From: a virus
DNA length: 64,000 nucleotides
Virus record (IMG/VR): IMGVR_UViG_3300044511_000090
Coordinates: 10,145-74,144 of that record
Strand: one strand, 5' to 3'
Part shown: positions 6,360-42,358 of the stretch, piece by piece
Position numbering within the stretch: position 1 is the first letter of the stretch
Layout: each line of letters starts with the position of its first letter
Position numbers and translations under genes: made by a program
The notes under the pieces: generated by a model
The model's input: only the letters and a program-made list of their open reading frames with translations
Told to the model about the DNA's origin: nothing
Database searches by the model: none

Positions 6360-6610
6360 CAAATCCAAAGCCATGCCCTCGATGTGGCTACCCCATAAGT
6401 GTCTTTTCATGATACACAAGATGTGATGCGTGCCGTAGGGAATGGAGGCTTAATAATGTTGACACTATAAATGACGTAATAATCACTTGGAATGCGACAT
6501 CAGAACTGCTCAATGAGAAAGACGACCTTGAACGACGCCTCGAAGATGTTGCGGCCAAGATCAGGCTTGAAATTTCCAAGATCAACGCCAATAGGAATCT
6601 GAACACATGA
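6356..6610 (+). pseudogene. Lar-like zinc-ribbon gene interrupted by an in-frame TGA at 6410-6412
   Basis: MTNPKPCPRCGYPISVFS*YTRCDACRREW...ITWN; ATGA overlaps with both neighbours. Confidence 0.7.
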
Positions 6611-8088
6611 TCCTCTCAAAACAAGGCTTCCTTGACTGCATATCCGCCAATCCAGAAGAGGATGCGCCGTCGCTTGTCTACGCAGACTACCTTGAAGAAA
6701 AAGGCGACACTCAGGAATCTGAGGCGTTCAGACTCCTCGTGAGCGACCCGGAGATGTTTGGCATCAAGAACAGAACCAAGATCGATAAGCTGACAGACGT
6801 GGAGACGGCCAGATTCAAAACTTGGGTTGACTACTGGAAGGCAGTTGGATTATCGACGAAGCCGATTGACAGGGCGAAAGCCAAAAAAGCCGTGTGCTTG
6901 GCATACCAAAAAGCTGGCATGAATCCCACGTCCTTGTTCATTTTCCTTGATTCTCCTCTTGGCGGCGCGATTGCGGCGAGATTGTTCAGCCAGCCACTAC
7001 TGATTTCTACAGTTTTGGAGAATGTCGCCACTAAGGTTCGTAATCAGGTTTTTGGCAAGGTTGAGCAGCAGGTTGTGGGTCAGGTTGGGCAGCAGGTTAG
7101 GTATGATGTTATGAATCAGGTTTGGTTTAAGGTTGGTGAGCAGGTTTGTGATCAAGTTTGGGCCAAGGTTAATGCTCAGTCTGGCGATCAGGTTCGTGCC
7201 CATGTCCGTAATCAGGTCGGCGATCAGGCTTGGAATCAAGTTGTTGGACAGGTGCGTGATCAGGCTCGTGGCCGGGTTGGTTATGGGGCTGGGTCTCAGG
7301 CTTGGGATCAAATTTCCGATCAGGTTAGCGATCAGGTCTGGAAGGATGTCGGCGGGCAGGTTTGGAATCAGATTCGTGAGCAGGTGCTAGATCATGTTGG
7401 GCGTCAGGTTGATGATCAGATTTTTAATCAGATTAGCCAGCAGGTTTGGCCACAAGTTTCTCGTCAGGTTTCAAATCAGATTGCAACTAAGGTTGCTAAA
7501 CAGGTTGGGCGTCAGGTGCTAGATCATATTGGGCTTCAGGTTGAGAAGCAGGCTGGTGATTGGGCTTGGGATAAGGTTGTTGATCAGCCTTGCGATCAGG
7601 TCTGGATTAGTGCTCGTGATCAGGTTAGCGATCAAGTATGGAGGCAGGTTGGCTACAAGGTTCTGGATAAGGTCGGCGAGCAGGCTGGCGAGCAGCTTCG
7701 GGATGAGGTTAGGTATGGTGTTTTGAGTCAGGTTGAGAATGAGGTTTGGAATCAGGCTTGGAGTCAAGTTCTGAGCCGTGTTCGGTTTAATGTTGATGAT
7801 CAGGCCGATGATCAGAACTGGACCGGCATTGGCAAATGCGGATATGGTAGCCACGACGCCTCCTGGCTGTCGTTCTACAGCTACTTGTGGAAGCATGGGC
7901 TGGAGTGCTGCAACAAGCTGGAAGGGCTTTTCGAGGTCGCAAGAACGTGCGGCTGGTGGTGGCCATTCGAGAACGCCGTCATCATAACCGACCGGCCAAC
8001 GAAAATCTGCTTCAATGATCGTGGCTATCTGCACGGCTCACCGGCCATCTTGTACAAAGACGGCTTCTGCGTGAACGCAAACAACTGA
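6607..8088 (+). CDS. TIGR02996-domain + QVxx-repeat + truncated DUF6745-type protein
   Basis: FLDCISANPEEDAPSLVYADYLEEKG; STKPIDRAKA...DSP cap; about 260 aa of 4-residue QVxx periodicity; GSHDASWLSFY...CGWWWPFENAVIITDRP...LH. Confidence 0.88.
   Translation: MILSKQGFLDCISANPEEDAPSLVYADYLEEKGDTQESEAFRLLVSDPEMFGIKNRTKIDKLTDVETARFKTWVDYWKAVGLSTKPIDRAKAKKAVCLAYQKAGMNPTSLFIFLDSPLGGAIAARLFSQPLLISTVLENVATKVRNQVFGKVEQQVVGQVGQQVRYDVMNQVWFKVGEQVCDQVWAKVNAQSGDQVRAHVRNQVGDQAWNQVVGQVRDQARGRVGYGAGSQAWDQISDQVSDQVWKDVGGQVWNQIREQVLDHVGRQVDDQIFNQISQQVWPQVSRQVSNQIATKVAKQVGRQVLDHIGLQVEKQAGDWAWDKVVDQPCDQVWISARDQVSDQVWRQVGYKVLDKVGEQAGEQLRDEVRYGVLSQVENEVWNQAWSQVLSRVRFNVDDQADDQNWTGIGKCGYGSHDASWLSFYSYLWKHGLECCNKLEGLFEVARTCGWWWPFENAVIITDRPTKICFNDRGYLHGSPAILYKDGFCVNANN
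7030..7815 (+). repeat. Degenerate 12-nt coding tandem repeat (CAGGTT-N6)
   Basis: For example caggttgggcag caggttaggtat gatgttatgaat caggtttggttt. Confidence 0.9.
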
Positions 8089-17858: not shown

Positions 17859-18560
17859 ATGATCGCTGTCGAGATTCCAAAACTTCAAAGTTTCGCAACT
17901 CTTGCCGAAACAATGGCAAGAGCCGAAGAGTTGATTGTCGAACTGTCAAAGAAAGGAGAAGAAGTCGTGGCTTCGGCAATTTACGAAGACTTTTTGACAA
18001 AGCCGAAGTCAAGAATGATCAAAGTGCTTGGCGTGTCTTCCCAGGCATCGAGGGAAGCTAACTCGGTCGCTCCAGGCGGGAAATGGTGTCTTCACCATGA
18101 AATGGTCGGCGGTGGCAGACATCGATTCATGGCGTGGTACTCCAGATACCTTATCTACGCTTGGGCAATGTTCCAATGCGAAGACGGTTTTGTGGCGATA
18201 GGGGTAGATTTTGAATCGATCAACGCTTACTACCGAACATGCCAAGGCTTCAACTACCTTGGACAAGGCGACATAGAAGGACTGTTTTCGGAGGAGTCTG
18301 ACCTTCAACTGTATGAGGAAATTTACGACGCATCGATGAAGATCAGGCCGCCAAGTCTGCCATTTGACGAAGCGTACCAACCGGCATTCTGCTTTGTGGC
18401 ATATCAGAGGCCGGACCTGTTCCACGAGGCAATCATGAAGTGCCGTGGAACGAAGGAAGGATACTTGGCTGATTGGCGAGTCAAGCATCTGTCCAAGGTT
18501 TCGGAAATGATCGGGCGTCCGGTCCCAGGTTTCGTAACAATCAGAACACAAGGAGCATGA
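17859..18560 (+). CDS. Hypothetical protein
   Basis: 233 aa; AAGGAG RBS; ATGA overlap with the ATPase. Confidence 0.7.
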   Translation: MIAVEIPKLQSFATLAETMARAEELIVELSKKGEEVVASAIYEDFLTKPKSRMIKVLGVSSQASREANSVAPGGKWCLHHEMVGGGRHRFMAWYSRYLIYAWAMFQCEDGFVAIGVDFESINAYYRTCQGFNYLGQGDIEGLFSEESDLQLYEEIYDASMKIRPPSLPFDEAYQPAFCFVAYQRPDLFHEAIMKCRGTKEGYLADWRVKHLSKVSEMIGRPVPGFVTIRTQGA

Positions 18561-20104
18561 CAATGTCGTTGATGATCGAAAAATTCAAGGCAGCACGGAA
18601 AGCCTCTGTGCCGCTTATCGCAATCACCACGCCGGACTATCCGGCAACAGTCAAGGCAGTGTCAGAGGCGATGAAAGAATATCCACTGATTCAGCATGAC
18701 CTGATTCGTGGGTACACAGCAGTCAATGAGGCTGGCCAAATGGCAATGGATGACCTTGGGCTGGACAAGCCAATTGATGAAAATGAACCAGAAATCACAA
18801 ACACAATCTCCAAAACTGGGAACCCGGCTGAGGCATTGTCGTTTGCGTTGCAATTGCCGGGAGACTCTATTTTGTTCTTCCACAATGCACAGAGATACAT
18901 CGGCAACGAAGCCGTGTGCCAAGCCATAATGAACCTGAGAAACCCATTCACAAATCCTCGCAGAACTCTGGTCATGCTGGCGACATCCATTGAACTGCCG
19001 CCAGAACTAATGCAAGATGTTCTGGTGCTTGATGAGCCGCTGCCGGACTCAAAACAACTGGCAGAGGTTACAAAAACCTGCTACACATCATTCAACAAGG
19101 AGCTTGCGAGCAAAGGGATGCCGACCCTCAAAATACCAGAGGGCCGAGACATGGAAGCAATCACAGACGCTCTGACAAGTCTGGCGGCGTTCCCGTGCGA
19201 GCAAGTCGTGTCAATGAGTCTGTCAAAAGATGGCATCGACACAAAATCCCTATGGGAGAGAAAATACAAGACAATCGAGCAGACTGATGGCTTGTTTGTC
19301 TACAGGGGGAATGAGACATTCGACGACATCGGCGGCGCTGAACAGATCAAGAAGCGTCTCACTCGGATTATGACCGGCAAGAAGCGATGGAGGTGCGTTG
19401 CTTGGGTTGACGAAATCGAGAAGTCGATTGCTGGTGCGACTGGTCCTGTAGGAGATAGCTCAGGAACTTCACAGTACGCACTTGGCAAAACTCTGACCGA
19501 GATGCAGGAGAATATGTGGGATGGGTTTTTCGGAGTTGGCCCAGGCGGAAGCGGCAAGAGCCTAATTGCCAAGGCTATCGGCAACACATTCGGCATCCCA
19601 ACTTTCATTATTGACTACGGCGCTATGCAGGCATCGCTTGTTGGCCAAAGCCAGCAGCGAGTTTCTGCCGTAATGAAAATACTCAAGGCTGTCGGCGGGG
19701 ACGGTGTGTTTTGGGTTGCGACGTGCAACAAGATCAAGGCCATTCCGCCAGAACTGAAGCGGCGATTCACGAAGGGCATCTACTACTTTGACCTTGCATC
19801 CGAAGAAGAGAAGAAAATGTTGTGGTCGATGTACTTGAAGAAGTACAACCTCGAAGAACAGAAGATGCCATGCGACGACGGGTGGACCGGGGCCAATATC
19901 GCCGCCTGTTGCCGCAACTCGTGTGAAGAAGGTGTCAGTATCTTGGAAGCCGCCGAGTCCATCGTGCCAATCACCAAGAGCGACCCTGAAGGACTCACAG
20001 AGCTTCGGACGATGGCAAATGGCAGATTCCTGAGCACAACGCATCCTGGAGCGTATGTGATTCCGAAAGTGGAGAAGAGGTCTTCCAGAAAAATGGAGGT
20101 TTAA
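18557..20104 (+). CDS. Ycf46-like AAA+ ATPase with a rearranged P-loop domain
   Basis: N-terminal inactive AAA-like domain (ELPPELM...LP); TFDDIGG; CVAWVDEIEK (Walker B) precedes GVGPGGSGKS (Walker A); VATCN sensor 1; IPPELKRRF; GWTGANI. Confidence 0.92.
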   Translation: MTMSLMIEKFKAARKASVPLIAITTPDYPATVKAVSEAMKEYPLIQHDLIRGYTAVNEAGQMAMDDLGLDKPIDENEPEITNTISKTGNPAEALSFALQLPGDSILFFHNAQRYIGNEAVCQAIMNLRNPFTNPRRTLVMLATSIELPPELMQDVLVLDEPLPDSKQLAEVTKTCYTSFNKELASKGMPTLKIPEGRDMEAITDALTSLAAFPCEQVVSMSLSKDGIDTKSLWERKYKTIEQTDGLFVYRGNETFDDIGGAEQIKKRLTRIMTGKKRWRCVAWVDEIEKSIAGATGPVGDSSGTSQYALGKTLTEMQENMWDGFFGVGPGGSGKSLIAKAIGNTFGIPTFIIDYGAMQASLVGQSQQRVSAVMKILKAVGGDGVFWVATCNKIKAIPPELKRRFTKGIYYFDLASEEEKKMLWSMYLKKYNLEEQKMPCDDGWTGANIAACCRNSCEEGVSILEAAESIVPITKSDPEGLTELRTMANGRFLSTTHPGAYVIPKVEKRSSRKMEV

Positions 20105-20106
20105 CA

Positions 20107-20421
20107 ATGCCTTGCGATACGATTCAACTGAACAAGGTTTCCATCAAGGCCGCAAATCGCGGTCTACTTGGGAAAGCGATTGAGGCGCTTGGCTACAATG
20201 CCAAGATGCTGAACGACGGCACTATTGTCTTCACTCACAAGGGGAGGCAAGTCAAAGTCACCGATTCGGGAGTCATTGTACCTGTTGGCGAAGAGGCATT
20301 GGCCGACAAAATCAAGACTGCGTATTCGGCAGAAGTGCTGAAGGTTGCAACTCAGAAATTCAGTTGGGGAATGCTGAAAGGCAAGAAAGCCAACACCTAT
20401 ACACTTGTAAGGAGATTCTAA
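20107..20421 (+). CDS. DUF1257/Ycf35-like partner of the AAA ATPase
   Basis: LLGKAIEALGY...IKTAYSAEVLK pattern; position directly after the Ycf46-like gene. Confidence 0.6.
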   Translation: MPCDTIQLNKVSIKAANRGLLGKAIEALGYNAKMLNDGTIVFTHKGRQVKVTDSGVIVPVGEEALADKIKTAYSAEVLKVATQKFSWGMLKGKKANTYTLVRRF

Positions 20422-20633
20422 TGTTTGGCAAAGCTGACAAAATTGAAGTCGAAATTCTTGCCGATGGTACAATCAAGATCACAACCGATCCAATCTCGCC
20501 AGCAAACCACCGAAGCGCTGACGAGTTGCTTGAATTTATTTCAAATCTGACTGGTGGAGAAATGACGAGAACGAGACGGCCAGACAAGAAGGGGCATCTG
20601 CACAAGCACGGCAATCATTGGCATTCGCACTGA
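20421..20633 (+). CDS. DUF2997-like small protein with a His-rich tail
   Basis: IEVEILADGTIKITT...LTGG...R; C-terminal HLHKHGNHWHSH. Confidence 0.6.
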   Translation: MFGKADKIEVEILADGTIKITTDPISPANHRSADELLEFISNLTGGEMTRTRRPDKKGHLHKHGNHWHSH

Positions 20634-20678: not shown

Positions 20679-21578
20679 ATGCAGTACCAGACTCTGTTGA
20701 ACGTATTCATTGTTTTCTTGGAATCGGCAAAGTCTGAAGACAAGCCGACCGTCGAGGGGGTGAAAAAGTCTTTGAGAGAAAACGGATTCAAAGACGAACA
20801 CGCAGAACCAATTCCACGCGGCACAGCGTTTGGCCGGGTCGTCCAGTCAATGGCTGGCAAGGACGATGATGGCAATGTCATCAAGGCGTCCAGTTTGAAG
20901 GCCAAGGAAGAAGGCATTGTCCGATGGCAATTGAATCTTCTATCGGCAGAAGAGAACGAGAAGATTCGCGCGACGTGGACTGCTGGCTGGTTCATGCGAG
21001 ACGATGAGACCATTCAGGCAATCGATGGATCGCCAGACATCAACGCCGCTGTCTCACGCGCAGAGATGGAGTATGAGCCCGGCGACATCACCAGCATATT
21101 TCGTTCAGTTCTCAAGGACGAAGGCGATGGGTCGTATCCGATGCGTGACGCAGTTTGGTGTGTCCCAACTCGCGGGAGCAATCTTCTTGAGAGGCTTGGC
21201 AAGGTGGTCGGCAATGCCGGTAGGACTCTTATGGTTTGCCCGATCTTCGACACCGGCGATGGCAAAGAAAAGTTCGCTGTCCTCAAGGCAATCTCAACCG
21301 GCATCGACCAAGAGATTGAGGCCCACAAGAATGCTATTGAGTCCTACGTTGCTTCGACAAAGCCGGGCATCATCGAGAACCGCAAAGACGCAATCAAAAA
21401 CACCAGGAATCTTATCGGCAACCTGACAGAGCACATCGGCGAATCGAAAGTCAAAGAGTTCAACACTGTTCTTGATGGCCTCGATAGCATGTGCAACACG
21501 GCAATCAGCGTGGCGGAATCGGCACGTAAGGCCGGTCTTGCTGGAGCAGGCCGAGGACGGCAAATCAAGATCGACTGA
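20679..21578 (+). CDS. Hypothetical protein (DUF3150/DUF6744-like), fourth gene of the AAA module
   Basis: AFGR...YPMRDAVWCVP...C-terminal helices; family call tentative. Confidence 0.55.
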   Translation: MQYQTLLNVFIVFLESAKSEDKPTVEGVKKSLRENGFKDEHAEPIPRGTAFGRVVQSMAGKDDDGNVIKASSLKAKEEGIVRWQLNLLSAEENEKIRATWTAGWFMRDDETIQAIDGSPDINAAVSRAEMEYEPGDITSIFRSVLKDEGDGSYPMRDAVWCVPTRGSNLLERLGKVVGNAGRTLMVCPIFDTGDGKEKFAVLKAISTGIDQEIEAHKNAIESYVASTKPGIIENRKDAIKNTRNLIGNLTEHIGESKVKEFNTVLDGLDSMCNTAISVAESARKAGLAGAGRGRQIKID

Positions 21579-21662: not shown

Positions 21663-24255
21663 ATGATTGAAGTCACACTCAATTCGTGCTGGACCATCGT
21701 GTTCTTGAACAAGAGCCACAATAAACCCACGCCAACGGTGTGGGTCTGTACGAACCATGATGCTTGGACCCGTGGCATTCAGATGCTGGAGAAGATGAAG
21801 CACATTGAAATCATTCAGCAAGGGGCATCACACGTCAAATCGTGAGCAGGGGAGAACTGACATGAGCGAACACACTGCCAGTTTTGACGCGCTAATCGGC
21901 CACTGGAACGGCGCATGTTACGAGACAAGCGAACGCACCAGAGACGAACTAGAAGCCGAAGTAATCAAGAATCAGAAAGGGTAGGTCATGAAGATAGTTA
22001 TTAAGCCAGAACTATTGGCGCAAAGCAAACTCCGTAAATGCACGCTTTCGGAGTGGATGCAAAGCCAACTTGGGGAAATCGCCGCCCTGAATGGCGACGC
22101 GCTGCTTTATTACTACGAGGATGCTTTGTGGGACATAATCGGCTGGTCCCGTGACCTGTCAGCCGTCATTGTTGAACTCGGCTTGGGGGAAACCAAGACA
22201 TTCCCAATACAACCCGGCGAGACATTATACTACAGGTGAATGAGAGCCCCATGAAACGGACGTGGATTGTTATTGTTGAGCAAGGGTTTGGTCACGAGTT
22301 GCACAACAGTATCAGCGACTCGGAATGGTATGGCCCATTTACCGAGACTCAGGCAAAAAATCTTTCCAAAAAGCTGAACAAAATCTTGGCCGATCCAAAT
22401 GACCGAGAACACCCAGTTGCTCAAGCAATGCCGCTCAAGGGCAGGCTAATCAGGAGCATCATAAAGGAATACTACAAGGAGATATAAATCGATTACTGAG
22501 ATACAATCGCTTCTGGTTCTGGAACAAATTTTGGAGCAACCATGCCATATGCAACCGAAGCTCGTGAATGCCGGACTCCAAGCAACGGCGCTGTTTGCAG
22601 AAAATGCAAACAGGTTTTCCATCAAATGATGTTCATTCATTTCAGGAGGTCAACAGACGATGCACAATGGGTCTGCACCGGATGGGAATGCTTTGACTGC
22701 GAGAGGAAGACTGACAATCAGGGAACTGCTGGCATCCGAAACGCTCGTGGAGGCGTCGAGAAAAGCCGCAAGAATGGCAGCAGATGCAGCCAACTGGTGG
22801 GAAGTGTCCGATATGCTCGGTCACATGGACGCCATCGAACTGATTCCGAACAGGACACAATTCGACGACGCGCCGAGCCTAGTTTCAAAGAAACGGATTG
22901 CAGACTTGCTGATAATCAGATGGAAGGGGCGACAGGATCGGCGAGCTATGGATGCTGCCAGAGAATCGGCACGCGAAGGATACATGGCACACATGAGAAA
23001 ATGCGGAATGTCTGCCAGCAAAGCGCAGTTGCGGCAAATTGACTTGTACCTGCAAAGTAAGTTTGAGATTCCGGCAATCTAGTGGCAGTGATTCGATTTT
23101 TCACAGTGGAGAACTGACATGAACGAGAGCTTAGATGCAAAAGTCAAGGCGATAAACGACGCCCACCAATATGCGATGGAACTGTACGACAAACTGTTTC
23201 CGATCTTTTCCAGGCAGCTAGGCAACAAGATTATCAAAGCCGATGGATCGCTATTGGCAAAGGTTGAGAAGCTACTGCCAGAACTTCCGTTTTCAAAAAC
23301 TCTCGAAGTCTACTACGTCAAAAGATACCATTTGGTTCAATGGGGAATCAAGACATCCGAGGCGGTCAAAGGTAACTACTGGGAAACAGTCGATTACTCA
23401 ACCAATTGTACTGTCGGAGAACTAAAGGGGAACGTCTTGACGAAGATTCGCATCCGTCCCCAACTCCGCTCAGACTACACAACTGCGGAAGTTCTGGCGA
23501 ACCGCAAGGCATACGAAGAATCTGTGGAAGCCACAGAAAAGGCGAAGGATAAGCTGTGGCCATTCGGCGAGTATGACCACTAAGCGACGGCTGACCAGCA
23601 CGTTGCCGAGCGTCCTGTCTGGAACTGATTACAGGAGACAATCTGTGAAGATTCGCAACGAACTGGTAGAAGTCTACATTCGCCGCGCTCGAATCCAATT
23701 CGAGGATTGCGACCACGAACACAGTACCGGGAAAGAAGTGCGAGAGCACGCAAACGCATGGGCGGCGGAATGCACGAAGATTCTGGCAGGCAAAGGATTC
23801 GTTTGCGATGTGGAAGCAGATTATAGCAAGGACTGTGACAAGTTTTTCATCTGCGTCTCCGTAGGTGATCTGGAAATCTTCTGCAACTGGCGCGGGTCGC
23901 TGAAGCAGCTGACACCGGCACAATCGCGGTTCATCACGACGATCCTGGAATCGATCAACGAGGCTGATGATGCGGGCCGCGAAACTGCGCGGGCGTGCTG
24001 CTACTAAGGACTATTCGGAATGCATAGGAGCAACGAAACATGAAAAGGCTATATGTTGGATTGTTCGATGACGGCAAGCGAGAAGTGTTCCGATCAACCG
24101 CCACGCCTACGGCTGAATCGCATGGTGAGAAGTATGTTGCCGTGATCGGACCATTCCGCACGGTTCGAGGCGCTAACTTCATGCGCGATCATGGGCAAGG
24201 GAATCCGCACTGCCAATGCGTGTCCGATGCCGAACGACTCGCCATTGTTCGATAA
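21663..24255 (+). other. Run of small hypothetical genes (21663-21845, 21988-22239, 22236-22487, 22660-23082, 23119-23583, 23645-24007, 24040-24255)
   Basis: Co-oriented ORFs with RBSs. Confidence 0.65.
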
Positions 24256-24325
24256 ACTGATCGTCTTTCGCTCCTGGCATTGTGCCGGGAGCTTGTTCTG
24301 GAGCGGATTACTAAGGGGAAATGAA

Positions 24326-25309
24326 ATGAGCACGAAGTCACCAGCAAACAAGCTCCGAAAAATCGCATCGGGGATGCCTGAAAAGGTCGCGCACCTTCTC
24401 AGGCCGATGACACAAAACTCAACGCCAAAGCGACAAAGAGAGTACGCCAGCAGGTGCATCGACGGCAACAACATGGAAAGGTGCAGGCTGGCAATGCTGG
24501 CGCTCGCGGACGCATGGGACAAGGGGACATTGCCGCCGATATTGACAGATGTGAAGACCAAAGACCAGATTTATACTCTCGTCAGGCACGGCACGAATTC
24601 AGCAGGCCATTACAACATCTACTCGACGAACGAATTCGTTGACAAGTCGGAGGCGGGCAAAGCGCTCCAAGAATTGTTCACATCGTTCATGGGAGAGGCG
24701 GATAAAAAGCGGCAAGAGGAATCCAAGAAACAACAGGAACTCGACCGCCTTCTCGACCGTGTTCGGTACGCACAAATACCAGGATTCTTCCCAACGCCAG
24801 CAGGACTTGCCGACAAGTTGATTAAGGCGGCTAAGATCGAGGCAGGAAACACGATCCTTGAACCGTCTGCTGGAATCGGATCGCTTCTGGATGCGTTGCA
24901 GCGATTCCCGCTGGATTACATGGGCGGCTTGACAATCGTGGAAGTCAACCGGACTCTTGCCGACATTCTCCAGGCCAAAGGGTACACGGTAAACTGTGTC
25001 GATTTCCTTGAATTCACAGGCCAGACGTTCGACCGGATCATTATGAATCCGCCTTTTGAGAACATGCAGGATGTGGATCATGTTCGGCACGCCTACGAGT
25101 TGCTGAATGATGGAGGCGTACTGGTGGCCATAACCTCGATGTCGTGGACATTCAGGAGCGACAACAAGGCGCAGCAATTCAGGGAGTTCCTGTCGTTCGT
25201 TGGCGCTGAAGTTGAGAACATTCCGGCAGGGGCATTCAGCGGCGCAGCGGCGTTCAGGTCTACTGGAGTTGTGAGCAACATGGTCACTATTAGGAAAGGT
25301 ACAACATAA
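24326..25309 (+). CDS. N6-adenine DNA methyltransferase-like (gamma order)
   Basis: FFPTP, ILEPSAGIG (motif I), IIMNPPF (motif IV), GGVLVAI. Confidence 0.9.
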   Translation: MSTKSPANKLRKIASGMPEKVAHLLRPMTQNSTPKRQREYASRCIDGNNMERCRLAMLALADAWDKGTLPPILTDVKTKDQIYTLVRHGTNSAGHYNIYSTNEFVDKSEAGKALQELFTSFMGEADKKRQEESKKQQELDRLLDRVRYAQIPGFFPTPAGLADKLIKAAKIEAGNTILEPSAGIGSLLDALQRFPLDYMGGLTIVEVNRTLADILQAKGYTVNCVDFLEFTGQTFDRIIMNPPFENMQDVDHVRHAYELLNDGGVLVAITSMSWTFRSDNKAQQFREFLSFVGAEVENIPAGAFSGAAAFRSTGVVSNMVTIRKGTT

Positions 25310-27086: not shown

Positions 27087-27269
27087 ATGTTCTTCGTGAT
27101 AGTCAGTTTTCACAACGACAATTCAGAAACCATCTGGAACAAACTGGCCAAGAAACTTGGCCGCGATCCAACGAGCGACGAATGCAAGGCTGAGGTGTTT
27201 CGCATTCTCGATGAGGCTAAGGCAGAAAGGATTGAAAATGAGAACCGACCAGTCTCAAAGGAGCAATAA
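27087..27269 (+). CDS. Small hypothetical protein
   Basis: TIWNKLAKKLGRDPT..E.K.EV.RIL. Confidence 0.6.
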   Translation: MFFVIVSFHNDNSETIWNKLAKKLGRDPTSDECKAEVFRILDEAKAERIENENRPVSKEQ

Positions 27270-27270
27270 A

Positions 27271-28776
27271 ATGAAGTCGATTGAAGTGACGAACAGCAAG
27301 GCCGTGCAAAGCCTCACTTTGCCGTGGCCGGAAGAAGGCGGGCTTATCGAACTCCAAGGCTTCAATGGCGCTGGAAAGAGCGACACACTTGAAGCAATCG
27401 ATGCCTTGTTTGGCCGCGATGTGGGCAAACTTGAGCGAACTGACGGCAAGGCGAACGGGAAGATCGAAGGACTTGGCAAGTCAATCAAGATTACTGCCGC
27501 TGGTGGTCGGAAATCTGGCGCTCTTGAGGTCGTTTCGCTTGAGGACGGAATCGGACTTGGCGATGTAATCGATCCAAAGGAAAAGTCTTTGGCCGCAGCA
27601 GACAGGAAGGCCGCAAAATCCCTGCTGAGAATCATCGGCGCAAAAGTTGACATGGCAAAGTTCTTTGAATTGGTTGGCAGCGAAGAAGAATTCAGAAAAC
27701 TGGTCAACTCCGAAGTGTTCTTGGAATCCGATCTTGTCTCAGCCGCAGGCATGGTGAAGCGAGACATGGAGCAGGCGGCAAGACGGGCAGAGGCAACGGA
27801 GAAGAACTACAGCCAAGATGCTGCTGCTGAACTCAAGGCGGCAAATGGGACCGATTTGACTCTGCCAGACAACTCCAAAGAACTGAACGAGGAACTCGAA
27901 AGAGCAACTCGACGCCGAGAAGAGTTGCAGCAGAAATTGAAGGCGGCGATTCGATCAAAAGAAGACCATGAGCGTGCGAAAAACGAGCTACAGGCAGCAA
28001 AGTCGGCCTACTCTGGCCCTGAAGTCGAACACGCAAAGATCGAGGCAGAGAAGGCAAAATCCGCATTCCTTGTGGCAAAACAAAAGGTCGAAGATGCCCA
28101 GAAAGCACTGGAAGAGGCCAAGCTGTCTCTTGCATACGCAAATTCTGCACAATCGGAGGCAACTCAGGCACACAGGAGCGCCGAAGAATACGAGAAGCTG
28201 ATCCAGAAGTGGAGTTCGGCGCTCGAAAGTACACTGGTCGTAGAGCCGCCATCGGATGCTGATTTGGCTGGCTCTTTGCTGCTTCTCGAAAAGGCACGAG
28301 AGGCCGTTGAAACTGGAGTTAAGGTGAGGATGGCCAAGCAGCATAAAGCCAAGGCCGACGAACTCACACAAAAGGCGTCGGAAGCATCGAAGCAAGGGGC
28401 TATGTACAGGGATGCAGCCAAGGGGGTTGAGAAGATACTTTCGGACGCACTCCAAGCATCTGGCGGTCCAATCAAGGTGACTTCCGACGATAAGGACGAG
28501 CTTCGCCTTGTGTACACTGGCCACAAGCGCGGAGAGGTCTTCCTTTCTGACCTGTCGCACGGCGAAAGAGCCAAGCTGGTCATCCCGATGGTCATCGAGG
28601 CAATCAAAAAGACCGGACAGCCCGGTGGATTCACTTTGCCTCAGACGTACTGGGAAGGACTGACGCCAAACAGCCGAACAGAGATTGTGAAGATGCTGAC
28701 CGGAAGCGGGGTCTGCTGCTATACGGCCAGAGCAGAAGACTGCGACATCAAGGCCGTTGTTCTTGGGAAGGAGTGA
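27271..28776 (+). CDS. SMC/Rad50-like ABC ATPase with coiled coil
   Basis: GFNGAGKS Walker A, long coiled coil, LSHGER signature; no canonical Walker B. Confidence 0.82.
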   Translation: MKSIEVTNSKAVQSLTLPWPEEGGLIELQGFNGAGKSDTLEAIDALFGRDVGKLERTDGKANGKIEGLGKSIKITAAGGRKSGALEVVSLEDGIGLGDVIDPKEKSLAAADRKAAKSLLRIIGAKVDMAKFFELVGSEEEFRKLVNSEVFLESDLVSAAGMVKRDMEQAARRAEATEKNYSQDAAAELKAANGTDLTLPDNSKELNEELERATRRREELQQKLKAAIRSKEDHERAKNELQAAKSAYSGPEVEHAKIEAEKAKSAFLVAKQKVEDAQKALEEAKLSLAYANSAQSEATQAHRSAEEYEKLIQKWSSALESTLVVEPPSDADLAGSLLLLEKAREAVETGVKVRMAKQHKAKADELTQKASEASKQGAMYRDAAKGVEKILSDALQASGGPIKVTSDDKDELRLVYTGHKRGEVFLSDLSHGERAKLVIPMVIEAIKKTGQPGGFTLPQTYWEGLTPNSRTEIVKMLTGSGVCCYTARAEDCDIKAVVLGKE

Positions 28777-31988: not shown

Positions 31989-32699
31989 ATGAGCGATTCA
32001 TCGCAACTGGCAACGAACCCGATGACACTCCTTCAGATGGCAATCGAGAAGGGGATAGACGCCGGGCAACTTGAGAAACTGATGGGTCTTCATGAACGAT
32101 GGGAAGCAAGCCGAGCCGCCGAAGCGTTTGGCAACGCTCTTGCTGCATTCCAGTCAGAATGCGGCCCGGTGTTCAAATCCAGGTCTGCAAAGACAGACAA
32201 ATTCGGCTACAAGTTTGCATCTCTTGACGACGTGATGGAAATTGCAGGGCCGATCTTGGCAAAGAACAAGATCAGCATTTCTTTTGACACGGAGCACAAA
32301 GAGATTTCATCCGATAATAAGAAGGACCACTTCCTGACGGTGATTTGCCGTATCAGAGTCGGCTCTTACTTCGAGGACCACAAGTTCACTTCGCCGGTTC
32401 CGTCAAGCCTTCGAGCATCCGAGCCGCAACAATATGGTGCAGCTTTGCAATACCTTAAACGGTACTGCTTGTGTGCGGCGCTAAACATCGTAACGACAGA
32501 CAAAGACACAGATGCGGCCAGCGTTGTTGAATTTGTCTCTCAGGGGAATGTTGAGCAGATGAAGAGGATTATTGAAGAAGCCAATGTTGACATCGGCAGA
32601 TTCCTTGCCTGGGCACAGATAGATTCCCTTGAACAGATGGCCGCAAAAGACTTCCCCAAAGCAATGGACCTTCTCAACAGAAAACGCAAAGGAGATTAA
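31989..32699 (+). CDS. erf: ERF-family single-strand annealing protein
   Basis: LEKLMGLHERW...YKFASLDD...QQYGAALQYLKRYCLCAALNIVT.D.D.D. Confidence 0.9.
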   Translation: MSDSSQLATNPMTLLQMAIEKGIDAGQLEKLMGLHERWEASRAAEAFGNALAAFQSECGPVFKSRSAKTDKFGYKFASLDDVMEIAGPILAKNKISISFDTEHKEISSDNKKDHFLTVICRIRVGSYFEDHKFTSPVPSSLRASEPQQYGAALQYLKRYCLCAALNIVTTDKDTDAASVVEFVSQGNVEQMKRIIEEANVDIGRFLAWAQIDSLEQMAAKDFPKAMDLLNRKRKGD

Positions 32700-34732: not shown

Positions 34733-35188
34733 ATGTCAAGCGTGAAAGAAGTAATTCGGGAAATCCAACAACACGCCAAAGTCCTGAAAGAGCGTGTGAG
34801 TCCTGGGCAACCGGCTGTCTTGAATGAAGCCTGCTCTGTTGGTGACGGCGTATGGCAAGGAGACCTCGGAATCGAAATCGTTTCCGCAGTCCCTGAAGGA
34901 TACGTCCTCGTCAAGAAGCCAAAGGAAGATGACAAGCAGATTGTTCCCGGCAACACACAAGGGAGCAAGCACGTTCTGCGAAGCATTGTCGGCGTATCGA
35001 TTTGGAGGCCGAAGAATTGGCCAAGCGAGATTGGTATTTTCGGGCCTTGCATTGTCGCAGAATCCGAAGCAGTTATCGATCACCCAACACACGGGGAGGT
35101 TACAATTTCTGCCGGTCACACCATCCTGTGCAGATACCAGCGTGAATGGGATCAAGAGCAAAAGAAAGCCCGCAGGAATGCCGACTAA
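34733..35188 (+). CDS. Small partner of the DUF6745-type protein
   Basis: WQGDL...GNTQGSKH...IDHPTHG...YQRE, a pattern I recall next to DUF6745 genes. Confidence 0.75.
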   Translation: MSSVKEVIREIQQHAKVLKERVSPGQPAVLNEACSVGDGVWQGDLGIEIVSAVPEGYVLVKKPKEDDKQIVPGNTQGSKHVLRSIVGVSIWRPKNWPSEIGIFGPCIVAESEAVIDHPTHGEVTISAGHTILCRYQREWDQEQKKARRNAD

Positions 35189-35201
35189 CCAAGGAGTACA
35201 A

Positions 35202-35816
35202 ATGAAGATCATCGAATGCGCCCAGATTTCTCCAGAATGGTGGGAAGCACGCAGAGGGATTCCAACGGCGTCGAATTTCAGCAAAATCATGACGCCGAAG
35301 ACCATGAAGCTGTCTTCTCAATGCGAAGAGTACATTGCTGAGCTCATTGCCGAACAGATATGCCTGACGCCGAACTATTTCACGGAACAAGGCAGGCCAA
35401 TAACCAAGGCTATGACAGACGGCATCGACAATGAGCCAGAAGCCAGACGATTCTACGAAATGGAGAAGAATTCAACTGTCCAGCAAGTCGGATTTATCAC
35501 AACTGATGACGGGAGATTTGGGTGCTCTCCAGATGGGCTTGTTGGCGAAGACGGTGGCCTTGAACTCAAATGCCCGATGCTTAAAACCCAGGTAAGGTAT
35601 TATCTGAATGGTGGCATTCCTGACGAATACATAACTCAGGTTCACGGCAGCTTGATTGTCACAGGACGGAAGTGGTGGGACTTTTTAAGCTACTGTCCAG
35701 GATCGCCGCCAGTGATGATTCGGACTGTGCCTAATGCGTACACCGAGAACCTGAAGAAGTGTCTTGAACAGTTTTGGACACTGTATCAAGAGTCTTTGGA
35801 CAAGTTCCGTAAATAG
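35202..35816 (+). CDS. YqaJ/lambda-type exonuclease
   Basis: QISPEWWEARRGIPTAS...EPEAR...GCSPDGLV...LELKCP...YITQV. Confidence 0.95.
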   Translation: MKIIECAQISPEWWEARRGIPTASNFSKIMTPKTMKLSSQCEEYIAELIAEQICLTPNYFTEQGRPITKAMTDGIDNEPEARRFYEMEKNSTVQQVGFITTDDGRFGCSPDGLVGEDGGLELKCPMLKTQVRYYLNGGIPDEYITQVHGSLIVTGRKWWDFLSYCPGSPPVMIRTVPNAYTENLKKCLEQFWTLYQESLDKFRK

Positions 35817-36235: not shown

Positions 36236-37162
36236 ATGCCAACAGAGGCCCATGAATACGCAGAACTGTTCCCGCTTCACGAGGGGCAAACACTTGTCGA
36301 TCTTTCTGAAGACATCAAAAAGAACGGGGTCATTGAGGCCATTGTGATGTACGAAGGGAAGATTCTTGATGGACGAAGGCGAGAGCTTGCTTGCGAGTCG
36401 GTAAACGTCAAGCCAAGATACAGAGCGTTCGGAAGCCTTGAATCAGATGGTGACGATCCTCTTGCTTTTGTTTGGTCAAAGAACTTTCACCGAAGGCATC
36501 TGAATCCGAATGAGAAAGCACTTTCAGCGGCTCAATATGTCACAGCAAGCGCTGGCAGGCCAAAGCAATCAACTGACGAATCAGAGAAAAAGCCGATCAC
36601 GAGAGTCGAGGCGGCAGAAAAATTCGACGTTTCCATAGATGCCCTGAAAAGGGCAAGGACGATTTCTGAAGGAGGGTCACAATCACTTGTTGACGCCGTC
36701 CAGAAAGAAGAATTGAGCATCAGCGATGCTGCATCGGTAGCGGGCCTTCCCAAGAGTATCCAAAACAAGGCCGTCAGCCGAGTCAGATCAGGCGATGCGT
36801 CAACGGTTAGAGAAGCAGCGAGGCAACTGTCTGACGAAACATCTGAAGCTGCTTTGGAAGAAGAGGCCAACCCGACAGACGAGACCATTGGCGATCAAAT
36901 CAAGCGTGTAAACGCAGAAATCGAGTCTTTCTGCCGCAAGATGCTGAAGATGTTTGATGACGAGTGCCCGCGAGACCCGTGGATTGTCGAAGAGGGGACC
37001 ATAGATGGGGCCAGAAAGAAGGTTCAGAACGCTTGCCAAACACTGAGAACTGCCAAGTGTGAAGCGGAGTGTCCAAAGTGCGACGGCACTGGCTGTGCGA
37101 AGTGTTTCAAGACCGGACGTATGCCAAAGTTTGTTTTAGATCAACTTGGCACTTCAAAGTAG
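36236..37162 (+). CDS. ParB-like protein with HTH and C-terminal Zn finger
   Basis: LSEDIKKNG...ILDGRRRELAC...NFHRRHL; AAEKFDVS HTH; CPKCDGTGCAKCFKTG. Confidence 0.88.
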   Translation: MPTEAHEYAELFPLHEGQTLVDLSEDIKKNGVIEAIVMYEGKILDGRRRELACESVNVKPRYRAFGSLESDGDDPLAFVWSKNFHRRHLNPNEKALSAAQYVTASAGRPKQSTDESEKKPITRVEAAEKFDVSIDALKRARTISEGGSQSLVDAVQKEELSISDAASVAGLPKSIQNKAVSRVRSGDASTVREAARQLSDETSEAALEEEANPTDETIGDQIKRVNAEIESFCRKMLKMFDDECPRDPWIVEEGTIDGARKKVQNACQTLRTAKCEAECPKCDGTGCAKCFKTGRMPKFVLDQLGTSK

Positions 37163-37171
37163 GAGATACAC

Positions 37172-39826
37172 ATGGCAGATGTGACCCTTTTTGAAGAAAA
37201 AGCGCCAATGCTTCTTGGTATCACTCCAAGAGAATACCAAATAGAGGCTCACGACAATTCGCTTCGTCTTTTTGGCGAAGGAATTCCAGGCGTACTTCTC
37301 AGGATGGCAACCGGGTCTGGCAAAACACTAACCGCGTCAATGCTGGCAAGGACATGGCTTGGAAGAGGCGACGATTACCGCGTGATGGTCATCAGTTATG
37401 AGACTCAGCTTGTTTGGCAGTTTGCCAAAGAAATCGAGAGTTTCATCGGTGTCCAGCCTGGAATAGAAATGGAGAAGAACAGAGCGGATTCGTCTAACAA
37501 AATCGTCGTTGCTTCTCGCCAGTCGCTTTTGCAGCACCCTGGGCCGACAAAAGAACAGGCCGATGAGTTGAAATCACTCGGCGTCACCGAACTCGGATGC
37601 TCAACGAAGAAGATGGCAGAATCGTACTTGAAGTATCTCAGGAAGGGGATAAGCGTTGATGATGTTTTGGCCGACATAGAGACAAAGAATCAACAACCAG
37701 AGGCATCGAACGGGAAATGGAGCAGGGTCCACAAGTTCGATTGGCGGCTCAACTGGCTTATATTTTCCGATGAATGCCACAGGTTCGCGTATCATCTCAA
37801 ATCGGTCAATCATTGGGTCGAATGGTTCGAGCAGAACCCAAACTCGAAGCGAGCAGGGCTTTCAGCCACACCTAAAAGATCAGATGGCGTGTCTATCGGA
37901 AGCCGGATGTTCCCCGGCATCGCAATAGACTACCCACTGTTCAGCAGAGAAGGCAGATGCGCACTGAGAGACGGATACGCCGTGCCGTATGTCCAAAAAT
38001 ACATCGAACTTGAAGGCGTTGATTTCAAGCAAATCAAGAGGGTGACAGAAGGAGGCGACTTCGATGAATCAGCGCTTGAAAAAGCCCTCATGGAAGACAA
38101 AGAACTTGCCGGGCTCGTTGATCCGCTTCTTGACATGGTTGGCGATAGGCCGACTTTGATTTTCAATCCAGGCGTTGAGATGGCAAAGAAGGTTGCCAGA
38201 TTCATCAATGCCAGATGCGAAGCAAAATGCGAATGCGGACAAATACGCTGGTATCCCAAGCAACTTGTCGGGGACGGCGCAACTTGCGAGTGCGGAAGAT
38301 TCATCATCCAAGAAAACATCACAAAGAGCGGCGATCAGGCCGTCGAATTGGATGGCGAAGTCCCACACCAAGTCAGAGATGAGTATTACAGAAAGTTTGA
38401 AGAAAAGAAGTTCCAGTTTTTGTCAGTATGTGGCCTGTGCATTGCTGAAGGAACTTTGATATTGACAGATGTTGGCGATGTTCCAATTGAAGACGTTACA
38501 ACCCACATGAAGGTTTGGGACGGGGTTGAGTTTGTTTCCCATGATGGTGTCATATTCAATGGATTTAAGCCGGTCATAGAATATGCCGGATTAAGAGCCA
38601 CTGAAAACCACAAAGTATTGACAAAAAGCGGGTGGGAAACAATAGCAGAATGCAAAAAAAATGGAACGCCGATTGTTATTGGGCAGCTTATGAAGTTGCC
38701 AGTCCAGTACAGCAAGGAATCCGATTTTGTATTCAGAGACCCAGAACAACATGAACAACAGCCTGAACATGCTACAGAACAATCGAACGTCTATGACATC
38801 TTGAACGCTGGTCCTAGACATCGTTTTACAGCCAATGGGCTTCTTGTATCAAATTGCAGAGAAGGCTTTGATGTCCCATCAATCGCTTGCGTAGCCGTCT
38901 TCAGGCCAGTCAGCAAGAAGGCGTCATCACTTGCAGAGCAAATGAAGGGGCGAAGTTGCAGGCCGCTCAGGGAAATAGCGAGAATCCTTCACACTCTTCC
39001 AACGCCAGAAGACAGAAGGAAGCTGATCGAAGAAAGTGAAAAGCCCAATGCGCTTATAGTTGACTTAGTAGGAATAACCGGCCTTGCAGACTGTGCTTCG
39101 ACTGTTGAAATCTATGCCGAAGGTCTTCCAGACGAAGTAATCAAACGTGCAGAAGACATTCTATCCGAGAAGGGGAAAGACGAAGAATTCGATGTTCAAG
39201 AGGCAATTGATCAGGCAGAAAAGGAAGACCGAGAGGCCAAAGAGAAAATTCGGAAAGAACGAGAAGAGTCTGAGCGACGGGCCAAAGAAGAATTCGAGAG
39301 AAGGGCTCAAGCGGACCCGCGTGCCAAATACACGACCTATGACAAGGGTATTGGCTCTCAGTACGATCCAAACGAGGCAAGCGAAGGCCAATACAACTTA
39401 ATCAAGTCTCTTGGGATGGAAATAGGCGACGTTATCAGCAAGCGGAAGGCCGGAAGAATAATCAATATGCTCAAACAGCGGACAAACCCATCAGAAGTTG
39501 CGTACAAGAACGGCATTTCTTCATGGGAACCGACTCCGCCTAGCCCTAAGCAATCATACGCCTGCAAAAGACTTGGATACGATGTATCGACTTCATACGA
39601 AGCCAGCCAGATACTATCAGCGGCAAGGAAGCCGCAAGAATTCAAAGCCAAGAAACTGGCTGATATCCAGAATGCCAAGAACGACGGCGATCTAACAGCG
39701 GTCGGCATGGATATGAAACTCGTCAGGAGAATATGCCCGCCAGATGTGTGGGCTGAGGTTGTTTCGGCTGGCGCAAGAAAGAGGCAAGAACTCAAGAGTA
39801 TTAATTCTGACGATATTCCAGAATAA
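37172..39826 (+). CDS. Superfamily 2 DExH helicase containing a mini-intein
   Basis: PREYQ, ATGSGKT, DECH, LSATPKRSD, EGFDVP, QMKGRSCR. Confidence 0.95.
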   Translation: MADVTLFEEKAPMLLGITPREYQIEAHDNSLRLFGEGIPGVLLRMATGSGKTLTASMLARTWLGRGDDYRVMVISYETQLVWQFAKEIESFIGVQPGIEMEKNRADSSNKIVVASRQSLLQHPGPTKEQADELKSLGVTELGCSTKKMAESYLKYLRKGISVDDVLADIETKNQQPEASNGKWSRVHKFDWRLNWLIFSDECHRFAYHLKSVNHWVEWFEQNPNSKRAGLSATPKRSDGVSIGSRMFPGIAIDYPLFSREGRCALRDGYAVPYVQKYIELEGVDFKQIKRVTEGGDFDESALEKALMEDKELAGLVDPLLDMVGDRPTLIFNPGVEMAKKVARFINARCEAKCECGQIRWYPKQLVGDGATCECGRFIIQENITKSGDQAVELDGEVPHQVRDEYYRKFEEKKFQFLSVCGLCIAEGTLILTDVGDVPIEDVTTHMKVWDGVEFVSHDGVIFNGFKPVIEYAGLRATENHKVLTKSGWETIAECKKNGTPIVIGQLMKLPVQYSKESDFVFRDPEQHEQQPEHATEQSNVYDILNAGPRHRFTANGLLVSNCREGFDVPSIACVAVFRPVSKKASSLAEQMKGRSCRPLREIARILHTLPTPEDRRKLIEESEKPNALIVDLVGITGLADCASTVEIYAEGLPDEVIKRAEDILSEKGKDEEFDVQEAIDQAEKEDREAKEKIRKEREESERRAKEEFERRAQADPRAKYTTYDKGIGSQYDPNEASEGQYNLIKSLGMEIGDVISKRKAGRIINMLKQRTNPSEVAYKNGISSWEPTPPSPKQSYACKRLGYDVSTSYEASQILSAARKPQEFKAKKLADIQNAKNDGDLTAVGMDMKLVRRICPPDVWAEVVSAGARKRQELKSINSDDIPE
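38438..38854 (+). mobile_element. Mini-intein (139 aa, no endonuclease) in helicase motif V
   Basis: Block A CIAEGTLI, block B ATENHKV, blocks F/G VYDILNAGPRHRFTANGLLVSN, then Cys+1; removal restores VCGL-CREGFDVP. Confidence 0.92.
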
Positions 39827-41467: not shown

Positions 41468-42358
41468 ATGACCCAGCGCATCGGCCCCCACGAGTTGCAC
41501 TGCGGCGATGCCATCACGGTCCTGCGCCAGATGCCGGAACGGTATGTGTCGCTGACCGTGACGAGCCCGCCGTATGAAGATGCCCGCACCTACGGCGTCG
41601 GGTTCCGACTCAAAGGACAGGATTGGGTCGATTGGCTTATCCCGATCATTGTCGAATGCTGCCGTGTAACTGACGGGCTTGTGCTTGTGAACGCAGCCGG
41701 GAAGGTGAACGACTTCCAGTACACGCCGGTCATGGAATGGCTTGTCACAGACTTGACCCGTCAGCATGGGATCGTATGCGGACCGGCCCCATACGTTTAC
41801 CGGCGCGTCGGCATCCCTGGCAGCGGCGGTCAGCATTACCACCGGCGCGATTGGGAACCAGTCTATGCGTTCGCGTTGCCGGATCGACTGCCGTTGAGGT
41901 GGAGCGATAACACGGCAACCGGCCACGCGATCCCGGCTCGTATCGCTGCGGTGTCACCACGAGGGACAAACGGGGCAAGAAATCATGGCTTTTATTCGTC
42001 ACCGGATATTGCCAACGCCGGGAACGTAATCAATGAAACGTACACTGCCGCGCAGGTCCAGACCATACTTGACGGCGGCGACGTAATCGACTGCAAGGTT
42101 GGCGGCGGGCTCATGGGGCATCCGTTGGCAAGCGAGAACGAAGCGCCAATGTCGCTCACGCTCGCTACATGGCTCGTGCGCAGTTACGCGCCACCGGGCG
42201 GGCGTGTGCTCGATCCGTTCATGGGCAGCGGGACTACGCTTCATGCGTGCATGGACACCGGCCGGATCGGTGTAGGGATTGACTTACGCGAATCGCAAAT
42301 CGAACTAACCCGGCGACGGCTACAGTCCGTGACGCCGACGATGTTCGATGAGGCTTGA
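41468..42358 (+). CDS. DNA amino-methyltransferase (beta class, SPPY; probably N4-cytosine)
   Basis: VTSPPY precedes VLDPFMGSGTT. Confidence 0.92.
   Translation: MTQRIGPHELHCGDAITVLRQMPERYVSLTVTSPPYEDARTYGVGFRLKGQDWVDWLIPIIVECCRVTDGLVLVNAAGKVNDFQYTPVMEWLVTDLTRQHGIVCGPAPYVYRRVGIPGSGGQHYHRRDWEPVYAFALPDRLPLRWSDNTATGHAIPARIAAVSPRGTNGARNHGFYSSPDIANAGNVINETYTAAQVQTILDGGDVIDCKVGGGLMGHPLASENEAPMSLTLATWLVRSYAPPGGRVLDPFMGSGTTLHACMDTGRIGVGIDLRESQIELTRRRLQSVTPTMFDEA

Follow-up and report, generated by a model that had tools for sequence, protein, structure and literature searches.

Can an AAA+ ATPase carry its Walker B motif ahead of its Walker A motif? Few protein machines have been studied as intensively as the AAA+ ATPases, and Walker A followed by Walker B is regarded as an invariable feature of their fold; the classic AAA order is Walker A, pore loop, Walker B, sensor 1 and Arg finger. 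The question is raised by a gene in a 64,000-nt stretch of a lake-water virus record of IMG/VR (74 kb)—hereafter called the "window"—in whose nucleotide numbering all positions are given. This gene encodes a two-domain AAA ATPase, P0001, in which the two Walker motifs stand in the reverse order. Our analyses confirm that P0001 represents a real, natural variant of the AAA+ fold, with an order that we did not find described in a literature search on permuted AAA proteins and on Walker B before Walker A (a search without most subscription journals). They also make it highly probable that P0001 is a member of a large, natural, mostly phage-borne, Ycf46-like lineage of the classic AAA clade, with a rewired nucleotide-binding core.

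The reversed order in a clean frame had been described in an earlier note made from the letters of the window, and it can be read directly in the uninterrupted 515-residue translation. After FDDIGG (residues 257–262), the chain passes through CVAWVDEIEK (280–289), GDSSG (299–303) and LTEMQE (313–318) before it reaches GPGGSGKS (328–335), SLVGQSQ, VFWVATCN (384–391) and PPELKRRF (397–404). The Walker B residues D285 and E286 (nt 19409–19414) lie 43 residues ahead of Walker A with its K334 (nt 19538–19561), and pore loop 1 (L361-V362-G363, nt 19637–19645), sensor 1 (N391, nt 19727–19729) and the arginine fingers (R402 and R403, nt 19760–19765) follow. The collinear AAA order of Walker A, pore loop, Walker B and sensor 1 is not found in P0001. 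The positions in the note proved exact, with the Walker B block starting at nt 19394, LTEMQE ending at nt 19510 and Walker A placed as above. The note had also held the catalytic residues to be intact, and indeed Walker A, the Walker B Asp-Glu pair, the sensor 1 Asn and both arginines are all present and are conserved in the family. The gene starts with ATG, 9 nt downstream of AAGGAG, in an overlap with the stop codon of the preceding 233-aa open reading frame (ORF), and ends with TAA.

The profile libraries see little of this protein. Pfam AAA (PF00004) matches residues 327–377 only (51 residues, profile positions 4–54 of 131, 8.9e-12), and such a match to the front part of the profile is what would be expected of a protein whose Walker B part is absent from the usual place. 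The NCBIfam matches are weak and partial AAA matches only. phrog_8638 of PHROGs, which has no function assigned there, covers mainly the N-terminal domain, and PADLOC gives only generic P-loop matches to IetA, with no match for the neighbouring genes.

How is the domain rearranged? We describe a canonical AAA domain as four blocks: block A ends in helix α0, block B is β1–Walker A–α1–β2–pore loop–α2, block C is β3–Walker B–α3, and block D is β4–sensor 1–α4 (with the Arg fingers)–β5–lid. In P0001, the third block precedes the second. Canonical-order sisters of P0001 were found in a scan of GTDB genomes, as proteins of metagenome-assembled genomes (MAGs) from Planctomycetota, Kuenenia and Myxococcales (Myxococcota) with 23–28% identity. 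They keep the N-terminal domain and the signature motifs in the normal order (...RPRGVLLLSPPGCGKS...LVGQSE...ILFCDEIEKGLAGAGGSGQSDSGVT...LLTWLND...VFVVATCND...). The hidden Markov model (HMM) of the permuted family matches each of the 33 canonical-order relatives non-collinearly, at HMM positions 3–253, then 295–356, 259–297 and 358–491, with independent E-values (iE), computed in a database of 43 sequences, of ~1e-30 (1e-23 to 1e-33), ~1e-20, 1e-7 to 1e-10 and 1e-17 to 1e-45, respectively. The third of these matches is that of the ~40-residue Walker B block alone. Moreover, the family profile tiles the D2 domain of p97 gaplessly, with p97 residues 271–295, 313–362, 368–415 and 416–500 corresponding to profile positions 227–251, 299–348, 253–299 and 359–437. 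Thus, the separate alignment of the blocks that the note had proposed gives non-collinear matches both to the canonical relatives and to p97 D2.

The breakpoints of the swap lie just ahead of β1, β3 and β4, with the RPR linker remaining on the upstream side. The domain has kept its length and shows no trace of a duplicated block. At the level of sequence homology, these matches show a true block exchange, with the order A-B-C-D in the sisters and A-C-B-D here. The note was also right that this is no simple circular permutation: block A with FDDIGG and α0 and block D from sensor 1 to the lid stay in place, and only B and C are exchanged.

The swapped order is a property of a whole family. More than 120 of the 233 relatives found in a protein search with P0001 cover ~97% of the query at 37–66% identity, and the order is the same in every row of alignments of 15 and of 120 sequences. 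In the latter (38–67% identity), E286, K289, G328, G331, K334, G363, N391, R402 and R403 never vary, and D285, V362 and S365 hardly do. Homologues with DEIEK upstream of the P-loop, which the note had suggested looking for, turned out to be numerous: block-specific HMMs assigned the order C-B-D to 238 of 401 proteins and B-C-D to the other 163, and found no further architecture and no duplicated intermediate (B-C-B, C-B-C and similar) among them. The 238 permuted proteins are all the close relatives that were compared, from independent samples and down to 32% identity. We also built a junction profile of 70 positions across the C-B boundary and ran it at E<=1e-10 against 1.84 billion representatives of 50%-identity clusters. 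It found 2,263 cluster representatives, a count that takes in some giant multi-AAA proteins reaching the score by summing many P-loop stretches. Among the best 150 matches, 12 are such giants; in the other 138, the profile aligns over its whole length without interruption, at about residues 260–340 of ~500-aa proteins. Relatives number at least 144 in IMG/VR and at least 435 in GTDB species genomes, the GTDB figure including canonical-order ones.

Could the swapped order have been produced by assembly or gene calling, as a local misassembly or a chimeric contig? The window is, after all, a metagenome-assembled viral contig. However, contigs of three runs from other studies (X6, X7 and X8) cover 18660–20275 and show no joints and no deviation from the window within the gene, and a single X7 contig spans 18660–19679, that is, the swap junctions. 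The same order also occurs in 238 of 238 relatives from independent samples and in a cultured phage genome. The misassembly that the note had named as a danger was therefore not seen, and an artefact, to which we give practically no probability, is refuted in practice. Scarcely more credible is the idea that the upstream hhhhDEIEK...GDSSG block is a convergent look-alike, an unrelated N-terminal elaboration of a protein whose true β3 and Walker B were lost. The block is short (~40 residues), and its match to p97 alone is weak (i-Evalue 0.5–0.9). Nevertheless, the canonical sisters hold the same block (xILFCDEIEKGLAGAGGSGQSDSGVT...LLTWLND) in its normal place, with the iE of 1e-7 to 1e-10 given above, and the permuted proteins, at unchanged total domain length, have no other candidate for β3 between α2 and β4.

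How would the exchanged blocks fold? We ran AlphaFold2 (AF2) with the 120-sequence alignment. The full-length model has a predicted local distance difference test score (pLDDT) of 95.5 and a predicted template modelling score (pTM) of 0.89; the pLDDT is 92.6 for the AAA domain alone and 97 over residues 270–289. The number of core strands in the modelled domain is exactly five, and along the chain they come as β3, β1, β2, β4 and β5 (residue boundaries in the table below). D285 and E286 directly follow β3, the P-loop follows β1 and N391 follows β4, and helices are found where α0, α3, α1, α2, α4 and the lid are expected. The model also has the α-β-α core and the helical lid of the AAA fold, matching NVL, spastin, Vps4 and FtsH. 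When the domain was compared by VIA-align with 48,161 PDB representatives, NVL, spastin, Pex1/6, Vps4, Rix7 and FtsH were recovered with Z of 14.9–16.3 and root-mean-square deviations of 2.5–3.1 Å, over 186–204 of ~255 residues. The residues left unaligned roughly equal in number those of the moved block, which a sequential aligner cannot place.

The sheet order of AAA+ proteins is 5-1-4-3-2. The new links β3–β1, β1–β2 and β2–β4 keep the direction of travel across the sheet, so that the helices would stay on their usual face. From the model and this topology, we infer that the domain folds in three dimensions into the customary sheet of five strands, in the order 5-1-4-3-2. A mean-field direct coupling analysis of 224 sequences (effective number of sequences, Meff, 175), in which β3–β4 and β3–β2 couplings were sought, was dominated by gap–gap couplings and gave nothing usable. 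Likewise, a complex prediction with three copies of the AAA domain and ATP, run with no controls, scored 0.01 and gave no answer, and it carries no weight either way. A search of BFVD found no viral model with the permuted topology (best query-normalized TM-score, TMq, 0.62). Foldseek aligns the whole P0001 model to the tandem-AAA proteins p97 (D1D2), Rix7 and NVL, which suggests that residues 1–245 are a degenerate AAA-like domain; judged from the model, the N-terminal domain is probably a degenerate, P-loop-less AAA-like D1.

The relation to Ycf46 comes from the canonical relatives. The nearest of them carry the Joint Genome Institute (JGI) name "SpoVK/Ycf46/Vps4 family AAA+-type ATPase", and the best viral structural neighbours, found in BFVD, are named "AAA domain-containing protein ycf46" in UniProt (A0A6J5NS46, and A0A0U3CC34 of Pseudomonas phage SM1), which bears out the comparison with Ycf46 made in the note. 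Ycf46, "hypothetical chloroplast frame", is the name of a plastid and cyanobacterial protein; the label Ycf46-like, which we take to be appropriate here, is founded on these source names and on Ycf46 motifs. Like P0001, the canonical Ycf46-like ATPases (for instance, the Planctomycetota/Kuenenia MAG proteins in loci L117–L142 and the phage proteins with the ycf46 name) have the N-terminal domain, a similar length and the motifs RPR linker, DEIEKxxAG, GDSSG/SDSG, LVGQSE, ATCN, PPE..R, GWTGAEI..CC and VPV. In contrast to P0001, their Walker A block precedes the Walker B block.

How often did the exchange occur? We built a FastTree phylogeny of 111 permuted and 33 canonical rows, in which the canonical blocks had been re-ordered by script. 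All permuted rows form one clade with support of 100, which is sister to 27 Planctomycetota-type canonical rows, and the remaining 6 canonical rows are the outgroup. Since one permuted clade stands beside a canonical sister and a canonical outgroup, one change suffices, and this sequence tree shows that the swap arose once in the sampled set. The simplest origin would be that B-C was duplicated in tandem within the domain and that the first B and the last C were then lost. Such a route would amount to a circular permutation of the internal segment from β1 to α3, with the ends of the domain fixed.

What would the rearranged protein do? The re-routing would be confined to three loops at one edge of the sheet (α0 to β3, α3 to β1 and α2 to β4); they would enter the three adjacent strands β1, β4 and β3, and every crossover would leave its helix on the same face. 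Because only these loops are re-routed and the helix faces are kept, K334, D285/E286 and N391 would still meet at one ATP site, and R402/R403 would act in trans in a ring. We propose that P0001 may be an ATP-driven hexameric protein remodeller or unfoldase, which would thread its substrate past two loops (L-V-G of the pore, and GDSSG) and would work with the DUF1257-like, DUF2997-like and fourth proteins encoded alongside. A ring-forming remodeller with small partners is our best guess, drawn from family resemblance.

Two other readings accept the swapped chain and differ on its history or its use. If A-C-B-D were ancestral for the Ycf46-like group, the Planctomycetota-type sisters would have reverted; the tree, rooted solely by the chosen outgroup, leaves room for this polarity. 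Yet the canonical order is found in the outgroup, in all PDB AAA proteins and in all 120 further relatives of L154, and a single forward change requires fewer steps than a change that is later exactly reversed, which makes the reverse polarity very unlikely. A larger but still small share of probability goes to a protein that is no standard AAA motor: block C could pack elsewhere or complete a neighbouring subunit by three-dimensional domain swapping, or the protein could be a nucleotide-binding switch or a pseudo-enzyme. The geometry of the active site (K334 to D285/E286) is deduced and the activity of the members is predicted, and pore loop 1 has a Leu in place of the usual aromatic residue. 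Against this, the canonical sisters carry the same L-V-G loop, AF2 places block C in one compact domain with the high pLDDT over residues 270–289, and outside that block the domain overlays active AAA motors with the Z scores given above. Furthermore, the Walker B acids, sensor 1 and both arginines are invariant or nearly so in 120 diverged sequences, which is hard to explain without hydrolysis. The note had proposed a functional, re-wired fold. Its re-wiring stands on the non-collinear block homology, the family conservation and the independent contigs, and its functional part is supported, with more reserve, by the residue conservation and the confident AF2 model.

Some points weigh against our preferred account of a rewired motor that arose once. 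The canonical three-dimensional arrangement is argued from secondary structure, confidence scores, sequential structure alignment and topological reasoning, and the motor activity of the family members only indirectly, from conservation and the AF2 model. FastTree flagged long branches that meet at the key node, and the re-ordering of the canonical blocks by script may add junction artefacts to the tree. The canonical sample consists of proteins with two short peptide patterns of the query, so that closer canonical relatives or a second origin could be missed. As no duplicated intermediate occurs in the 401 proteins, duplication and deletion is only the most economical model. Finally, the giant multi-AAA proteins in the junction count swell the apparent spread of the family.

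How does P0001 compare with known P-loop proteins? The classic-clade motors p97/Cdc48 D2, NVL, Rix7, spastin, Vps4, Pex1/Pex6 and FtsH share with it Walker A, the Walker B Asp-Glu pair, the sensor 1 Asn, the paired arginines, a pore loop before α2 and the helical lid. None of them has β3-α3 ahead of β1, and the sequential alignment with them is limited to ~200 of 255 residues. Among P-loop NTPases, the circularly permuted GTPases (PMC2430557) come closest as a precedent. In these enzymes (YRG/YlqF-YawG with G4-G5-G1-G2-G3; cpRAS with G3-G4-G5-G1-G2), as in P0001, the core is naturally permuted with its catalytic motifs kept, and in cpRAS the Walker-B-like G3 also stands ahead of the P-loop. 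The permuted GTPases differ in class and in that the whole domain is permuted and has new termini, whereas P0001 has kept its termini and is permuted in an internal segment only, within the AAA+ fold.

A member of the permuted family is also found in a cultured phage. The gp103 protein of Tunturiibacter phage Tunturi_3 (PP885686.1), annotated in its record only as "ATPase", is 32% identical to P0001 over 97% of the length and has the same order (VIIWYDEIEK...GVPGVSKS...FATCN). Unlike the window phage, Tunturi_3 is a cultured soil phage of an acidobacterium (described in PMC11924767), which makes experiments feasible. Elsewhere in the family, P0313 and P0390 (896 aa) and P0261 (653 aa) have a single permuted junction at about residues 260–327 and are far longer than the usual 500 aa; their extra length implies C-terminal fusions.

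Features of the permuted ATPase gene and of the genes that follow it (nucleotide positions in the window)
Feature	Position	Strand	Remarks
AAA ATPase gene (P0001, two domains, 515 aa, stop codon included)	18557..20104	+	uninterrupted ORF; 233 homologues
N-terminal domain, residues 1–245, α/β without P-loop	18557..19291	+	common to canonical-order relatives; profile positions 3–253, iE 1e-23 to 1e-33
End of block A: linker strand, FDDIGG (257–262), helix α0 (262–272), to the K-K-R-W-R linker	19292..19384	+	profile 227–251 = p97 271–295
Block C, shifted forward (residues 277–320, 44 residues): β3 280–284, D285 E286, GDSSG loop 299–303, α3 304–318	19385..19516	+	aligns to p97 D2 368–415 and to the post-Walker-A block of canonical relatives
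Block B (residues 321–382): β1 322–327, Walker A, α1, β2 349–352, pore loop 1, α2 362–380	19517..19702	+	Pfam AAA 327–377
Start of block D (residues 383–412): β4 384–390, sensor 1 N391, PPELKRRF, β5 408–410	19703..19792	+	N391, R402, R403 invariant in 120 sequences
Helical lid and C-terminal region (residues 413–515), R-K-M-E-V tail at nt 20087–20101	19793..20101	+	AF2 model; tail motif
104-aa gene, DUF1257-like (link via iterated profile)	20107..20421	+	no direct Pfam match
70-aa gene, DUF2997-like (link via iterated profile), His-rich tail	20421..20633	+	no direct Pfam match
299-aa fourth gene, at the slot of the DUF3150-type gene in 26 related loci	20679..21578	+	ends in the same tail, G-R-Q-I-K-I-D

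Which genes accompany the ATPase? Neither Pfam nor PHROGs yielded a match for the upstream gene (233 aa) or the three downstream genes (104, 70 and 299 aa), and the 104- and 70-aa proteins of the window have no Pfam match at E<=0.1. By iterated profiles, the 104-aa family occurs in 95 of 116 permuted and 19 of 43 canonical loci (with a partly drifted profile), and the 70-aa family in 50 and 9 of them, respectively; some weak late-round matches of these profiles are probably drift. Canonical Ycf46-like loci carry DUF1257 and DUF2997 neighbours, with which the 104- and 70-aa proteins of the window are connected by iterated profiles, and some of these neighbours pass the Pfam cut-offs themselves: DUF1257 (27.6 bits), with members at L117 and L142, and DUF2997 at L119 and L131 (59 and 51 bits). 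The order of the genes varies. We compared loci L026, L029, L038, L019, L055, L061, L109 and L117–L147. In the window and most permuted loci, the DUF1257-like, DUF2997-like and fourth genes are found downstream of the ATPase; in all canonical-clade loci examined and in some permuted loci, they are found upstream of it. Clusters of DUF2997, DUF1257 (ycf35) and fed7 are found in cyanobacteria (PMC4284462). A function of the Ycf46/DUF1257/DUF2997/DUF3150 module was not found described in the literature, in a search without most subscription journals. One low-depth X8 contig matches only 35 bases at 20086–20120, on the boundary between the ATPase and the 104-aa gene, with unlike sequence on both sides; it is probably from a related phage with other neighbours.

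The 70-aa protein ends in a His-rich tail, HLHKHGNHWHSH, and a relative (L060:6983-7282) has a weak match to the C-terminal metal-binding domain of UreE (E 0.011). Judged from its sequence, this DUF2997-like protein possibly binds metal.

The fourth partner is variable. A ~300-aa family fills this slot in 26 loci, and two of its members pass and three nearly pass the DUF3150 cut-off. The 299-aa protein of the window has no phmmer or hmmsearch match to these DUF3150-type fourth genes (hhalign probability 0.2%), and its BLASTP match to the closest relative is confined to the last 7 residues, 6 of 7 being identical to L001. The gene looks like a non-homologous replacement that kept the tail. The ATPase (20087–20101) and the fourth protein (21558–21578) both end in R-x-hydrophobic-x-hydrophobic(-acidic). 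The tail pairs of ATPase and fourth protein are RKMEV/RQIKID in the window, RKIEV/RQIKIDDE in L001, RSYGGDS/RLYGDD in L006, RLYGDS/RAYGLE in L015 and GRKFN/GRKFDL in L033, and L003 is among the further loci of this set. The strict tail motif is present in both proteins in 14 of 27 loci, against a background of ~16% of ORFs; the within-locus covariation of the tails is weak (shuffle p = 0.04). The shared tail may be a docking or recognition tag.

The window is phage DNA, with a small terminase subunit, a tape-measure-like protein, two DNA methyltransferases, Erf, a RecE-like exonuclease, a ParB-like protein and a helicase, and the ATPase module sits among early and DNA-metabolism genes. The early-region genes at 24191–25309, 41468–42358, 31989–32699, 34824–35816, 36236–37162 and 37172–39826 encode the two DNA methyltransferases, the Erf-like annealing protein, the RecE-like exonuclease, the ParB-like protein and the helicase, which has 884 aa and an extra C-terminal domain. 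An ORF of 539 aa at 27157–28776 has sub-threshold matches of the AAA_15 and SMC_N types and weak PADLOC matches to the defence ATPases AriA, PtuA and LmuB-like (E 5e-5 to 6e-3); by these matches, it may encode a phage-borne ABC/OLD-type ATPase. Another ORF, of 493 aa at 6607–8088, matches Pfam DUF6745 at its C-terminal end (E 1.4e-14) and has no PHROG match.

What does the permuted ATPase mean for the AAA+ fold? We consider it rather likely that P0001 belongs to the first described natural AAA+ lineage with a non-canonical order, which would have arisen from Ycf46-like ancestors when an internal segment was permuted once, and would since have reached phages of many bacterial phyla. In the same reading, the protein would be a normal, active hexameric motor, and the ATPase and its variable fourth partner would share the C-terminal R-x-h-x-h-acidic tail, maybe as a recognition tag. 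A large natural lineage with exchanged units shows that the AAA core tolerates three re-routed loops, and if the reading above is true, the order of Walker A and Walker B would be no structural necessity of the fold. The canonical and permuted sisters form a natural matched pair for studies of the folding and evolution of P-loop proteins. Profile libraries rely on the order of motifs, as the short Pfam match to P0001 illustrates, and filters based on motif order will leave proteins of this kind under-annotated. The AAA protein of this lineage is part of a conserved phage module, together with DUF1257-, DUF2997- and DUF3150-type proteins, and the job of the phage version may shed light on plastid and cyanobacterial Ycf46, whose name the canonical relatives bear.

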